A stretch of DNA of 14,367 nt, taken from the IMG/VR virus record IMGVR_UViG_2654587792_000011; one strand, given 5' to 3'. The notes under the pieces were generated by a model. The model was not told the DNA's origin and ran no database searches. It worked only from the letters and a program-made list of their open reading frames with translations. Source of the stretch: a virus (taxonomy: Duplodnaviria; Heunggongvirae; Uroviricota; Caudoviricetes). Made by a program: the position numbers and the translations under genes. Position 1 is the stretch's first letter; each line of letters opens with the position of its first letter. Shown here one piece after another: positions 8,466 to 14,367 of the stretch.

Positions 8466-8656
8466 GGACGCACCTCCGCCGTAGTTACGTATTTAACCGG
8501 GCTACCTTTCATTGAGATGGTTTCACACATCTCTGCCGCTTTCAGTTCCGCTGTTTTTCTGGATTTATAGCGACGGTGCCAGACAGATACATCCGTGCAA
8601 ACTGATACATCGTTTCTGTATTCCGTAGTGGAGATGATGATTTCGTAACTAATCAT
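8462..8656 (-). CDS. Hypothetical phage protein
   Basis: 64-aa ORF with 4-nt overlaps to both neighbours. Confidence 0.4.
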   Translation of the reverse strand: MISYEIIISTTEYRNDVSVCTDVSVWHRRYKSRKTAELKAAEMCETISMKGSPVKYVTTAEVRP

Positions 8657-9204
8657 GGGCGAACCTCCTTGTCAGAACCATTCAGCCTGGAATCAACAAG
8701 TGCAGCGCCAAAAACAGCATCACCAACACGGTCGTACAGTTTGCTAGCCAGCGGAGATTCAACGGCCTTAAGCATTGGATAAAGCTGGCTTGTCCAGATT
8801 TGATGGATTTCACGCAAATGCAGGTATACGCCTCTGGCGTTTCGTGCGACAGCTGACATATCAACCGCGTCAGCACCAGATAAATTCTTCTCCATCTGGT
8901 TAAAGGCGTTGATGTATGCCTCTTTGAACCGGGCTGCACGTTTGCCAGTAAAGCCCATAGCAAGGAACGCGAAGCCATCGCGGGTGATTTGATAGCAAGG
9001 TAGTTTGCGGCCTGTGCAATCGGTGTAATCACTGGGCTGAAAATTCAGCTCAGTGAATTCAACAGAGCACTCAAGCGTCTGGATTTTTTGAATAACGTTT
9101 TTGTGCTGCTTGCAGAAATATTCGGCAACGGCCAAAGAAGAGGTAACAGCCTTCCCATGGATAACATCAATTTTAGGGTGAGTTTGGGTAGGGGTGGTTG
9201 CCAT
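8653..9204 (-). CDS. Phage regulatory protein, Rha family
   Basis: N-terminus MATTPTQTHPKIDVIHGKAVTSSLAVAEYFCKQHKNVIQKI matches the Rha N-terminal signature. Start taken at the internal ATG 9202-9204 (GAGGA SD upstream), because the 9501 start would read through a terminator and a repeat-rich region. Confidence 0.65.
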   Translation of the reverse strand: MATTPTQTHPKIDVIHGKAVTSSLAVAEYFCKQHKNVIQKIQTLECSVEFTELNFQPSDYTDCTGRKLPCYQITRDGFAFLAMGFTGKRAARFKEAYINAFNQMEKNLSGADAVDMSAVARNARGVYLHLREIHQIWTSQLYPMLKAVESPLASKLYDRVGDAVFGAALVDSRLNGSDKEVRP

Positions 9205-9367
9205 AGTGACATCCTCATGTGCGAATTTTGAAAACTCACCACATGGGACGCCAATCACAGAGGTGGTGAGACGTACAGGGTTGGCGTAACCGGTCGCACA
9301 TGACCCCGGCGCATCTTTCGATGCCCCTGCACGCCCCACCATAATTTGGATGTGAGGAAACGTGCGC

Positions 9368-9389
9368 AAAAAAACCGCTGAAGCGCGGT
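9368..9389 (-). terminator. Intrinsic terminator inside the early-right operon (tR1-like)
   Basis: On the minus strand: stem ACCGC/GCGGU with 6-nt loop, followed by a U-run (complement of A368-A373 on plus). Confidence 0.45.
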
Positions 9390-9488
9390 TATGCGCATGT
9401 GCGAATTTCAGGACGCCAATCCCGGCACCCGCTTTATAAGGTGCGGAGACAGTGTAACGTCCCGAAATTGCAGAATCAATATTTGGTC

Positions 9489-9518
9489 TTGAAATGATCA
9501 TATAGCTGCTGATATCTT
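9489..9518 (+). promoter_or_regulatory. Candidate sigma70 promoter for a short plus-strand antisense RNA
   Basis: TTGAAA (9489-9494), 18-nt spacer, TG-extended TATCTT (9513-9518). Confidence 0.3.
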
Positions 9519-10604: not shown

Positions 10605-10737
10605 AACAAAGCACCAATATTAACTTTATAAATCAAGAATACATCAAGTTTAAATTAACATGCAAATTACAAAAGGATCGAATACACTAAAATCAAGTAA
10701 AGATTTATCCTTGTAAAGAAACCCACAGGATTTGGTC
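10605..10737. promoter_or_regulatory. Divergent promoter/operator region between the cro-like and cI genes (oR/pR/pRM-like)
   Basis: AT-rich. ATCAAG occurs three times (10632, 10643, 10692) and GTAAAGA twice (10697, 10713). Individual operators are not resolved. Confidence 0.5.
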
Positions 10738-11427
10738 ATGAAGAACGTCAAAAACACGGAAAATCGAATAGCCGCGATGCTGAAAGCAAAAGGATGGACT
10801 CAGGCTCAACTGGCCCGCAAGTTAGGTGTGAGTGCGCAATCAGTGCAGTACTGGACAACAGGAAAAACATTTCCACGGAGTGATAAGCTCGCGCATTTAT
10901 CAGAGATTAGCGGTTATCCACAATCCTGGTTCTTAGGTGAAGACTCCTCACCAACCTTTTCCTCGCAAGAGAAACACCAGACAAGAACAGATAGCGTCGT
11001 ATTTAATGTCCTTGATGTTGAGTTTAGTTGCGGTGATGGAACTCATGTCCGTGGTGACTTGATAGATGTAGTGCGCTCAATAGAACTTGATCCTGAATAT
11101 GCCCGACGTCTTGTTGGAAATCGGGCATTCAAAAATATAGAAATAGGTAACGCCAGAGGAGACAGTATGGCTCCCACAATCTCACCTGGCGACCTTCTTT
11201 TTCTTGATAAGACAGTAACTTATTTTGATGGCGATGGTATTTATGCATTTTGTTTTGATGGAGAATGCTACGTGAAAAGGCTTCAAAAAATTGGAAGCAA
11301 AATCATGGTGTTATCTGATAACCCCAATTATCAACCATGGAGCATCGAAAAAGAGGGGTTAGCTCTGCTTTATATCCAGTCTAAAGTGATCTCATCAGTA
11401 CCATTCAACATAAACAGATTTGGTTAG
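10738..11427 (+). CDS. cI: CI-type prophage repressor (HTH_XRE plus S24 LexA-like peptidase)
   Basis: N-terminal HTH GWTQAQLARKLGVSAQSVQYW; C-terminal peptidase motifs GDSMAPT (Ser) and YVKRL (Lys). ATG 10738 with AGGA SD is preferred over the track's TTG at 10732. Confidence 0.85.
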   Translation: MKNVKNTENRIAAMLKAKGWTQAQLARKLGVSAQSVQYWTTGKTFPRSDKLAHLSEISGYPQSWFLGEDSSPTFSSQEKHQTRTDSVVFNVLDVEFSCGDGTHVRGDLIDVVRSIELDPEYARRLVGNRAFKNIEIGNARGDSMAPTISPGDLLFLDKTVTYFDGDGIYAFCFDGECYVKRLQKIGSKIMVLSDNPNYQPWSIEKEGLALLYIQSKVISSVPFNINRFG

Positions 11428-11439
11428 TCTTTGATTTTA

Positions 11440-11461
11440 ACGGGCTTTGCCCGTTTTTTTT
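11440..11461 (+). terminator. Intrinsic terminator after cI
   Basis: Stem ACGGGC/GCCCGT with 3-nt loop (11440-11454), followed by eight T through 11461. Confidence 0.6.
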
Positions 11462-11491
11462 CTGCCTGAAATATACGATATCAATTTTTTC

Positions 11492-11543
11492 TTGACAGCC
11501 TGTTTCCCAAAACATAATATCGCACCATCAATTATAACTTGAT
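11492..11543 (+). promoter_or_regulatory. Strong sigma70 promoter with operator-like palindrome at the start site
   Basis: TTGACA (11492-11497), 17-nt spacer, TAATAT (11515-11520). Palindrome ATCAA-N7-TTGAT at 11527-11543 overlaps the predicted start. Confidence 0.55.
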
Positions 11544-11573
11544 TTGATTCAATTTAAAATTGTTGGCGGATAT

Positions 11574-12122
11574 ATGAAGACACTAAAAGCAACTCCAGAA
11601 ACAACTAATTTTATCAACTGCGGCTGTGTTACGCTTAAGGGCTTAGAACTTGATTCCTTTGCATTAAATATTGCAAATTTGCTAAGTGCTGTACGCACAT
11701 TCCATCTTCTGGATTGTGCTCGCTCAAAGGAACTGGGCATTGAGGTAATGGAATTTATCCATGAATATGCTCTATCTGCTGCTTCTCCTGCACAACAAAA
11801 ACAATCCTTCCCTGAAAGCTGGCTGGTTAACCTTCGCACCCAACGCGAAGCCTGCGGCTTAACAACCGCCGAACTCGCCAGGCTGCTCGATCTCGATGAA
11901 GAAATTATCATCCAGTGGGAGAGCGGAGAGTATGAACCAACTATCAGTATGCTTATCCCACTGGCAAATATTCTTGGCTGCGATCCGATGTGCCTGTTAA
12001 CTGGTGAGGTTACTCCTCCGGAGCAACCAAAAAGTGAGGAGCAGCAACACCATGACGCATCTCAACAAGTTTGCCCCTTATCTCGCGAAGCTCTTCTGCG
12101 GAAGAACCAATACCAATGGTGA
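11574..12122 (+). CDS. Two-domain protein: unknown N-terminal domain plus C-terminal XRE-family HTH
   Basis: Start taken at ATG 11574, because the track's TTG 11544 has no SD and lies too near the start site. HTH GLTTAELARLLDLDEEIIIQWESGE. N-terminal domain is homologous to the C-terminus of the next protein. The 3' end is uncertain because of overlapping alternative frames. Confidence 0.5.
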   Translation: MKTLKATPETTNFINCGCVTLKGLELDSFALNIANLLSAVRTFHLLDCARSKELGIEVMEFIHEYALSAASPAQQKQSFPESWLVNLRTQREACGLTTAELARLLDLDEEIIIQWESGEYEPTISMLIPLANILGCDPMCLLTGEVTPPEQPKSEEQQHHDASQQVCPLSREALLRKNQYQW

Positions 12123-12250: not shown

Positions 12251-12616
12251 ATGAAAAAGTTCGAAAACATAACTGTTCTCCATGTTGATGACTTTGATTA
12301 TACAAACCCGGAACTTCTCCCGGAGGTTGTAAAGGCAATGGATGTTGCCGATATAGTGATTAGAGAAAAGAGAATTGTCAAAAACAGGCTCGCATGCACT
12401 TCAGGAGCAATGACAGAAACAACCTCACAGCAAGATAATTACGAAGGCATTTGTCTGGAGCCTGATTCATTTGCGGTAAATGTTTATCATTTATTGCATG
12501 CAACACAGGTATTACATATGTCCAGTAATCACGAAACGAAAACACTCGGCAGCGAAATTCTGAGTTTTGCATGTGAGTATACAAAAGCTGCTGCCGAAAA
12601 AGAATTAGCGCAATAA
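12251..12616 (+). CDS. Hypothetical protein whose C-terminal domain is paralogous to the N-terminal domain of the 11574-12122 product
   Basis: 121 aa with good SD GAGGA (12242-12246). About 42% identity over a gapless 48-aa stretch (LEPDSFAVNVYHLL... vs LELDSFALNIANLL...). Confidence 0.55.
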   Translation: MKKFENITVLHVDDFDYTNPELLPEVVKAMDVADIVIREKRIVKNRLACTSGAMTETTSQQDNYEGICLEPDSFAVNVYHLLHATQVLHMSSNHETKTLGSEILSFACEYTKAAAEKELAQ

Positions 12617-12694
12617 CAACAAATATGCCCTGAACGTTTATTGCGGTTTTATCGCCGGGGATTGTTACAACCTTAATCCACAGGAGGCTTTATT

Positions 12695-12808
12695 GTGACT
12701 TTTATAAAGAATATGGCATCACACAAGACCGCCTGCCTTATTGCACAATACGGTGAAAATTACATGCATATTGCCTGCTTATTTCTGCGTAAAGCATACG
12801 GGAGATAA
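12695..12808 (+). CDS. Small ORF (37 aa) with strong SD, coupled to the downstream gene
   Basis: AGGAGG (12683-12688), 6-nt spacer, GTG 12695; product MTFIKNMASHKTACLIAQYGENYMHIACLFLRKAYGR; stop TAA 12806-12808 two nt before the next ATG. Too short for the ORF track. Confidence 0.3.
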   Translation: MTFIKNMASHKTACLIAQYGENYMHIACLFLRKAYGR

Positions 12809-12810
12809 TA

Positions 12811-13023
12811 ATGCATCAGAAAACAGCAGAACACGAACAAACCAGAATATTGCTGACCATCAAAAACGGGAAAGTAATATTCATTCTCCATGTTCATGAC
12901 GATGAACTTGTAGGAACTCTTTCAACATTCCTGTTTATTGCAGAAAAGGCAGGATATGACGTTATTGCACCAGCAGATGAAGATGAAGATGAAGATGAAG
13001 ATGAAGATGAAGATGAGGAATAA
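12811..13023 (+). CDS. Small protein with C-terminal (Asp-Glu)7 acidic tail
   Basis: 70 aa with SD GGGAGA (12800-12805). Hydrophobic beta-like core followed by the tail DEDEDEDEDEDEDEE. Confidence 0.55.
   Translation: MHQKTAEHEQTRILLTIKNGKVIFILHVHDDELVGTLSTFLFIAEKAGYDVIAPADEDEDEDEDEDEDEE
12976..13017 (+). repeat. In-frame hexanucleotide tandem repeat (GATGAA)6 plus GATGAG
   Basis: Seven consecutive hexamers read directly from the sequence; they encode the (DE)7 tail. Confidence 0.9.
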
Positions 13024-13028
13024 ATATC

Positions 13029-13610
13029 ATGCAATACGATGAATTCCAGGCTGAAGCAACAGCCAATGGTATACGAACTGGCAGTATGACGATTGATTAT
13101 CACGACGCCATACGTCGTCTGGATGCCGGAGAATTCGATACTCCTAATGTGCGAGGTTTACGTATCCTTCAGTGTCTGGCGCAAGCCGACGAAGCAGGAT
13201 TACTGGGTAAACTTCCGGTTGAGATGAAGGTTGCTCAGTGGCGATGGTTGTATGTGACGACATTCATCAACGAAGAAGAAGACAAGAACGGCACAATTGA
13301 TATCCTGAATGAACACGGAACAACTGAACACGCCGTGGTATATAACGGGATGTATGGGTTTATGACGATATATCCCGGCCCCATTCGATTTGCCTTACAA
13401 CAGTATATTGAATGGAATTTAATTCAAAAATACGGCGAAGCTGAAGGAATGGGAAGAGCGCTGTTTCTTTATCAGAAAATGCTCACTACTTCCCCTGATA
13501 AAGGTTTCATTCTTTCAGATATGGGTCGAGAAGGGCTTGAAATCCTTCTGGATGAAATTATTAACGAAATGAATACTCATGGCATGCAATCCGAAACAGA
13601 TATTAAGTAA
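13029..13610 (+). CDS. Hypothetical protein, no recognisable motif
   Basis: 193-aa ORF starting 5 nt after the preceding stop, with GAGGAA upstream. Confidence 0.55.
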   Translation: MQYDEFQAEATANGIRTGSMTIDYHDAIRRLDAGEFDTPNVRGLRILQCLAQADEAGLLGKLPVEMKVAQWRWLYVTTFINEEEDKNGTIDILNEHGTTEHAVVYNGMYGFMTIYPGPIRFALQQYIEWNLIQKYGEAEGMGRALFLYQKMLTTSPDKGFILSDMGREGLEILLDEIINEMNTHGMQSETDIK

Positions 13611-13806: not shown

Positions 13807-13875
13807 AGTGGCACACTGAATTTGGCCACCTGAACAGAGGTGATATGCTCACCTCAGAACAACACAGGTGCTCCA

Positions 13876-14367
<492 letters not shown>

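Follow-up and report, generated by a model that had tools for sequence, protein, structure and literature searches.

A conserved small open reading frame in the 194-nt gap of a phiP27-like lambdoid prophage

Does the 194-nucleotide (nt) gap between two genes of a phiP27-like lambdoid prophage hold a gene for a small protein, a leader whose translation serves the gene behind it, or a non-coding element in which a short open reading frame (ORF) is incidental? The question is raised by a stretch of viral DNA (Caudoviricetes, record IMGVR_UViG_2654587792_000011), which in its whole length of 14,367 nt is referred to here as the window, and which is the immunity, replication and Q segment of such a prophage of E. 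coli. Based on comparison with related loci, the small ORF in this gap is established, short of direct detection, as a genuine and conserved protein-coding gene, with its translation predicted from that comparative support. Its product is probably a real, translated small protein that acts in trans.

Conservation of the small reading frame

The small ORF occupies most of the "intergenic" gap, the upstream gene ending 78 nt ahead of its start, and the signals that bear on its translation are the following.

12682..12687, plus strand: Shine-Dalgarno (SD) sequence AGGAGG of the small gene, 7 nt ahead of the GTG
12695..12808, plus strand: small ORF with GTG start, 37 codons and TAA, encoding the peptide MTFIKNMASHKTACLIAQYGENYMHIACLFLRKAYGR (sequence and ORF list)
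12800..12805, plus strand: GGGAGA, which encodes Gly-Arg as codons 36-37 of the small gene and doubles as the SD for the gene behind it (sequence and the tails of relatives)

A preliminary description of this DNA had reported a 37-codon ORF with a GTG start, whose quoted peptide matches the entry in the ORF list exactly, and had placed its stop 2 nt ahead of a gene with an acidic tail, which agrees with a TAA at 12806-12808 and an ATG at 12811. The AGGAGG hexamer that it named is present as well, although its position had been given one base late and the spacer measures 7 nt (CTTTATT, 12688-12694) rather than the 6 nt described. This hexamer is found three times on the two strands of the window, each time directly upstream of a start codon, and an SD-like 4-mer precedes the start in 120 of 123 related loci. 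The strong ribosome-binding site (RBS) of the small gene itself, AGGAGG with a 7-nt spacer followed by GTG in the window or by ATG in most relatives, would drive its translation. The length of the ORF is unremarkable alone, as 40 ORFs of at least 30 amino acids (aa) are listed within 3.4 kb, and it is the comparative evidence that is decisive for the ORF being more than a chance frame.

An intact copy of the ORF is present in the window and in each of 127 related loci, which come from E. coli and no fewer than ten further genera of enterobacteria. None of these 128 loci has an internal stop, and each begins with ATG or GTG (ATG in 71 and GTG in 52 of the 123 loci matched automatically, and ATG in all five checked by hand). 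The encoded lengths are 32, 35, 37, 38 and 44 aa, so that all insertions and deletions (indels) comprise whole codons. In an alignment of 16 E. coli sequences, representing 14 distinct alleles, the start is ATG in every lineage except that of the window, the position of the stop is constant and no indel falls within the ORF, while single-base and 2-4 nt indels lie just outside it. Pairwise Nei-Gojobori estimates of the ratio of non-synonymous to synonymous substitution rates (dN/dS) are 0.06-0.18 in frame 0 and 0.46-4.5 in the two shifted frames. In frame 0 the proportion of synonymous differences (pS) reaches about 0.7 and is near saturation (about 0.5-0.7), while the non-synonymous proportion (pN) stays at about 0.15 (0.13-0.21). 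Frame conservation and the balance of synonymous and non-synonymous change in related prophages had been proposed in the preliminary description as a check on its micro-protein reading, and with the frame kept in 128 of 128 loci and dN/dS in this low range that reading is strongly supported.

The same pattern holds in a six-frame comparison of 46 alleles (31 of 37 codons and 15 of 35 codons) drawn from 51 unique alleles, in which frame +0 is the sole frame that is free of stops in all 46. Family-wide pN/pS amounts to 0.26 and 0.33 in frame +0, the lowest of the six frames. The other frames range from 0.9 to 2.8, except for the antisense frame with the same wobble positions, which as expected is similarly low yet contains stops in every allele. 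Variable columns are distributed over the first, second and third codon positions as 23/12/34. Purifying selection on the small ORF is thereby shown, at the level of sequence comparison, to span at least eleven enterobacterial genera.

This codon pattern also bears on the possibility that the region is a conserved non-coding element, either an RNA or a DNA "boundary sequence" for module exchange among lambdoid phages, in which the ORF would be incidental. Such a role would account for the mosaic structure of the locus, in which the gap is kept while the flanking genes are swapped: the ORF persists together with a leader element ahead of it, in which a structured hairpin shows covariation, while the gene upstream (L08-like or a gene for 66-80 aa) and that downstream (of family c1 or c3) are exchanged, with junctions that lie exactly at the ORF stop and at about 12612-12640. 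It would not account for substitutions concentrated at third codon positions, for pS of about 0.5-0.7 against pN of 0.13-0.21, for indels of whole codons only, or for a frame that in 128 loci never acquires a stop and always begins with ATG or GTG. In addition, no Rfam family covers the region and there is no excess folding energy over the ORF (z = -0.07). The small gene may incidentally be a recombination linker, a role that is compatible with a gene but leaves the codon pattern unexplained. A purely non-coding element is largely refuted by the codon-position pattern and is very improbable.

The end of the frame requires separate attention, as the last two sense codons contain the SD of the next gene. 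The tail codons are GGGAGA or GGGAGG in most lineages, but the C-terminal YGR is retained where the codons lose the SD (tacggtcggtaa, tacggaaggtaa), which indicates that constraint acts on the protein. The preliminary description had further noted the rare codons ATA, TTA, GGG and AGA, which are indeed present at codons 4, 29, 36 and 37, and had added that the phage carries tRNAs for ATA and AGA. Three tRNA genes are located at 524-773 on the minus strand, namely tRNA-Arg(TCT), tRNA-Arg(TCG) and a tRNA with a CAT anticodon that is labelled Met by ARAGORN and that would, by the literature on Shiga toxin (Stx) phages, be of the AUA-reading ileZ type. The rare GGG-AGA is explained by these codons doubling as the SD of the next gene, and ATA and AGA are not conserved among relatives, which leaves a link to the phage tRNAs unsupported.

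The position of this SD, together with the short distance to the next start, is what could make the ORF a leader, in which the act of translation and not the product controls the next gene through coupling or attenuation. Like attenuator leader peptides and coupled upstream ORFs, the ORF is short, ends 2 nt ahead of the next start and overlaps its SD; among the 123 loci the distance from stop to start is 2-3 nt in 105, and the two genes overlap in another 11. In the window, both the minimum free energy and the centroid structure contain a hairpin that pairs codons 30-35 with the downstream AUG. This junction hairpin, however, is no better than those of shuffled sequences (z = -0.63), and 19 other lineages either do not form it or fold differently (z -1.2 to +1.3); where the downstream gene differs, it is not kept. 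Unlike attenuators, the locus shows no alternative RNA structures, no terminator 3' of the ORF and no regulatory run of codons within it, and the next gene is equipped with its own good SD. That gene always belongs to one of three unrelated families (c1/phrog_340, c4/phrog_8959 and c3/phrog_1737), and a spacing of 0-5 nt or an overlap is the norm between neighbouring genes of these operons. The amino-acid sequence is under purifying selection and conserved over its full length across genera, which would be needless in a pure leader. The leader peptide that the preliminary description had offered as one of its two readings is therefore not retained as the main role and is considered unlikely.

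As the peptide is conserved along its whole length, as no junction structure is conserved and as the spacing is generic, we conclude that the peptide product matters beyond the mere act of its translation. This does not argue against some coupling. With the RBS of the next cistron formed by the final two sense codons, ribosomes terminating at the TAA can reinitiate, and would do so 2 nt downstream. Such reinitiation is likely, yet it is generic and reflects the ordinary packing of phage operons and no dedicated regulatory leader.

Predicted properties of the peptide

The family can be described by the signature M[TS]FI.D..A[YF]..A.L....G....IA.L[YF][LM][RK]KAYG[R]. In a family alignment of 13 sequences M1, F3, A13, L15, G20, I26, K33, A34, Y35 and G36 are invariant, and these ten residues together with five near-invariant ones are distributed along the whole peptide. 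The peptide is basic, with an isoelectric point of 9.5-9.8 and a net charge of +2.6 to +4.7. It does not have the hydrophobic transmembrane helix of a type I toxin or other membrane-active small toxin, as no stretch is of transmembrane grade, the maximum mean hydropathy over 19 residues being 0.41-1.09 and the grand average of hydropathy about 0. AlphaFold2, supplied with an alignment of eight sequences, placed a helix at residues 7-17, a turn at 18-20 and a second helix at 21-34, with a predicted local distance difference test score (pLDDT) of 85.6 and a predicted template modelling score (pTM) of 0.53. The sole indel of the family falls directly after the invariant G20, which fits a turn at this position. 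Together, these features predict a basic, soluble helix-turn-helix hairpin.

A hairpin of this kind, of about 30 residues, is reminiscent of the tetratricopeptide repeat (TPR), a helix-turn-helix unit of 34 residues that acts in tandem arrays of three or more. When the 35-aa forms are set against the TPR consensus, its small and aromatic positions (8, 11, 15, 20, 24 and 27) correspond without a gap, a register match made manually and without statistics. A sequence search of the Protein Data Bank (PDB) returned matches solely to designed TPR proteins, which were not significant (E of about 0.04, per-domain scores below 5 bits), and no Pfam TPR model matched the peptide, there being no family at E up to 1. 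Unlike a TPR array, the peptide would stand alone as one unit of 32-38 aa, and no larger protein that contains it was detected in the exhaustive protein scan described below. "Single TPR-like hairpin" is thus a fair description of its modelled shape, while membership in the TPR family is not supported.

In position and size, the closest analogues are the small proteins of the lambda pL operon, CIII (54 aa, an inhibitor of FtsH) and Kil (47 aa, an inhibitor of FtsZ). Like these, the product would be a very small helical protein encoded in a repressor-controlled early-left operon, packed closely with its neighbours and presumably made after induction or infection. The peptide is shorter, however, and has no sequence relationship to them, so the analogy is one of position and size only. 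A direct homology to CIII was considered and rejected, as hhalign gave a probability of 0.07%.

By this analogy, the peptide would bind a host or phage protein at an early stage of lytic development, soon after induction, and so act in trans. This mode of action is proposed with low confidence, and any specific target that might be named would be doubtful. Small proteins from the early operons of temperate phages have repeatedly proved to be specific inhibitors of host machinery, such as FtsH, FtsZ, RecBCD and restriction systems, which makes a conserved hairpin peptide of 37 residues a cheap candidate for synthesis and pull-down. Translated as predicted, it would give the early-left operon of lambdoid phages, Stx-converting phages and Salmonella Fels-1 among them, a further and well-supported orphan microprotein family, and the 194-nt gap of these prophages would not be intergenic.

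Several observations weigh against a trans-acting hairpin protein. Rare disrupted alleles exist, one of them frameshifted (P0005) and two with replaced N-termini (P0003 and P0004), and towards the 3' end, where the frame overlaps the SD of the next gene, conservation is in part confounded. A first AlphaFold2 run on four near-identical sequences gave one continuous helix; although it is superseded by the run with eight sequences, it indicates that the hairpin prediction depends on a shallow alignment. No family in Pfam, PHROGs, NCBIfam or PADLOC covers the peptide, the PDB gives no significant match by sequence and none by fold with Foldseek, and no homologue of it has a known function. Finally, it was not found in the text supplements of a ribosome profiling study of strain Sakai (PMC5597208), which covered uninduced growth in a strain not confirmed to carry the ORF.

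The leader element and its linkage to the small gene

Ahead of the small gene, the gap contains a second conserved feature.

12641..12680, plus strand: leader element consisting of a hairpin and a motif (covariation, covariance model and linkage)

In the window, positions 12644-12647 pair with 12654-12657 around the loop TTTATC (12648-12653), and the motif GGGGATTGTTACAACC follows directly at 12657-12672. Across the family this motif takes the form GGGGAUUCC(U)GCAACC, or in short GGGGATTCC..CAACC. Loci with non-coding sequence ahead of the small ORF, where the gap measures 67-82 nt in nearly all cases, carry a hairpin of 4-5 base pairs with a UUAAUC-like hexaloop. Compensatory double changes affect all four of the four stem pairs (for example CGGY/GCCG, TGCC/GGCA, CACC/GGTG, CGCC/GGCG and CAGC/GCTG), 90.6% of the hairpin cells are paired compared to 36-49% in controls with a slid partner strand, and the same helix was predicted independently by RNAalifold. 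A second possible helix of the leader (GGATT/AATCC) was rejected, as it varies mostly on one side and has 79.5% of its cells paired.

A covariance model built on this element recognises one copy, at 45.7 bits, in the window, which spans both early operons. In lineages where a gene encoding an S24 domain, or another gene, abuts the small ORF, weaker matches on the same strand are found 300-450 nt upstream, ahead of that gene. When elements were retrieved independently from viral contigs by a 14-mer and the model, six of seven were directly followed by the small ORF, and the seventh by an S24 gene and then the end of the contig. By this tight linkage, which holds across genera, the element marks the head of a small module composed of the element, an optional gene, the small ORF and the c1, c4 or c3 genes. 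No Rfam match above noise was obtained in 12400-13000, even at E up to 10. A role similar to a nut site, with boxA and boxB, was rejected for the hairpin, as it is present in a single copy and as no N was identified among 15 ORFs scanned against PHROGs, whereas a Q-like protein was found. The element might be a 5' hairpin that stabilises the transcript after processing in the AU-rich stretch upstream, or a binding site for a protein, and both of these are guesses.

The tight association of a basic peptide (+2.6 to +4.7) with a hairpin in which every pair shows compensatory change could also mean that the two form a miniature regulatory pair, in which the peptide recognises the hairpin RNA as N recognises boxB, or in which the hairpin is a translational operator for autoregulation. 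The peptide does not have an arginine-rich motif, however, the hairpin is single and without a nutR-like partner, its UUAAUC-like hexaloop is not GNRA-like, and in some lineages another gene is inserted between element and ORF. No homology supports such a pair, which is very improbable. Perhaps, in a wider form of this idea, the leader hairpin with GGGGAUUCC..CAACC and the basic 32-38-aa hairpin peptide constitute an undescribed two-part regulatory module of enterobacterial lambdoid phages. There the peptide, by binding the RNA element itself or a host factor recruited to it, would control the processing, stability or read-through of the early-left transcript. This is highly speculative. If true, the module would be a minimal analogue of peptide-RNA control of the N/boxB type, and a functional pairing of the linked hairpin with the peptide would make the small gene of greater interest.

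Distribution, annotation and operon context

Returning to the small gene as a coding sequence, its distribution is wide among enterobacteria. The gap sequence occurs in 340 of 5426 complete E. coli genomes (about 6%), falling into four identity bands down to about 76%. By tblastn and pattern scans, family members were located in genomes of Citrobacter, Enterobacter, Trabulsiella, Phytobacter, Atlantibacter, Kosakonia, Raoultella, Pseudocitrobacter and Superficieibacter, as well as in Salmonella Fels-1, Cronobacter ENT39118, prophages and phages of Klebsiella and several Hendrixvirinae phages. More than 454 viral contigs carry the family. Loci of the enterobacterial type were also encountered in a 756-nt contig of Kocuria sabuli (L032) and a 1550-nt contig of a Chitinophaga metagenome-assembled genome (L039), short contigs that look like contamination, and in OM284015, "Elizabethkingia phage EKP1", whose host assignment looks doubtful.

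The preliminary description had called the ORF unannotated, which is correct for RefSeq and its Prokaryotic Genome Annotation Pipeline (PGAP), where the 194-nt gap is left empty at 14 of 14 chromosomal loci inspected, and the authors of phiP27 did not call it either. It does not apply everywhere, since the ORF was called by RAST in phage PhiR49_2 (FIG00644067) and is also called in the record Stx1_14040 and in a number of other phage records. The omission from standard annotation is attributed to the shortness of the gene. In this respect it resembles other small ORFs of bacteria and phages that have been missed by pipelines (bioRxiv 10.1101/511675; PMC5597208), which likewise have fewer than 50 codons, lie in "intergenic" sequence and are skipped by PGAP. 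Missed small ORFs found by ribosome profiling in E. coli are similarly recognisable by SD, start codon and conservation, but the support given here is comparative and not experimental. Within the papers that could be searched, no report of this peptide family was found.

In a collection of 5.8 billion protein clusters, four clusters represent the ORF when the query is padded with its natural upstream read-through. An exhaustive HMMER scan of 1.84 billion representative proteins returned as true relatives ORFs of 35-38 aa, mis-called fusions and one frameshift. Matches to ankyrin repeats in the same scan were dismissed as spurious sums of short repeats and not as homology.

The surroundings of the small gene in the window are listed below.

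minus strand: three tRNAs, methyltransferase, Q-like antiterminator, RusA, HNH protein, DnaB-like helicase and DnaC-like loader
minus strand, further: O-like initiator, Rha/Ant-type regulators and a cro-like gene
10732-11427, plus strand: cI repressor of the LexA family
11439-11455, plus strand: terminator-like hairpin 3' of cI (promoter and terminator scan)
11492-11520, plus strand: pL-like promoter TTGACA-17-TAATAT, in the region 11480..11542 (promoter scan)
11480-11495 and 11527-11542: operator-like 16-nt palindromes ATCAAnnnnnnnCTTGA flanking the pL-like promoter
11544-12122, plus strand: helix-turn-helix (HTH) "CII-like" gene
12251..12616, plus strand: upstream gene, 121 aa, phiP27 L08-like, phrog_5451
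12811..13023, plus strand: downstream gene, 70 aa, with a poly-Asp/Glu tail, phiP27 L07-like, phrog_340
13029-13610, plus strand: L06-like gene
13840-14178, plus strand: ORF resembling the transposase OrfA of the IS3 family

The palindromes at the pL-like promoter match sites in the divergent cI/cro region at 10633-10708 (copies D2, I1, I2 and I4), and a consensus scan of the gap found no internal promoter or terminator. The small gene accordingly lies in a pL-like early-left operon, about 1.2 kb downstream of the promoter. As this operon is controlled by the repressor, the small protein would be made after induction or infection and not in the quiescent lysogen. The neighbouring genes give little indication of its role, as the families phrog_340, 8959, 1737, 5451 and 27579 are all of unknown function. 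The sole informative neighbour, present in one lineage, is a stand-alone Peptidase_S24 domain gene. In L020, L021, L033-L037, L042 and L043 this gene is annotated as "CI-like repressor"; it is without a DNA-binding domain and overlaps the start of the small ORF by ATGA.

Other features of the prophage were observed along the way. The 3' end of the downstream 70-aa gene consists of a GAAGAT/GAT-GAA repeat (12960-13020, plus strand) that encodes (DE)n, and relatives of 60 to 77 aa suggest slippage in this repeat. Two regions match both phrog_4587 and phrog_5451, namely residues 33-82 in the N-terminal part of the HTH "CII-like" protein and the C-terminal part of the L08-like protein, which points to a domain of about 50 residues duplicated between the adjacent early-left genes 11544-12122 and 12251-12616. 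The OrfA-like ORF interrupts the early-left operon past the L06-like gene, and the closest relative (L001) has an IS903B insertion there.

On the minus strand, Rfam matches above the gathering score were obtained for the C4 antisense RNA (75 bits) and the Hfq-binding RNA isrK (62 bits) at 9259-9346 and 9368-9444, within or beside the Rha/Ant-type regulator gene at 8653-9501, which suggests an antisense immunity module of the P1/P7 type in this prophage. The small RNA STnc100 (139 bits) lies at 257-447 on the same strand and adjoins the three tRNA genes, a layout typical of the late-promoter region in Stx-type lambdoid phages.

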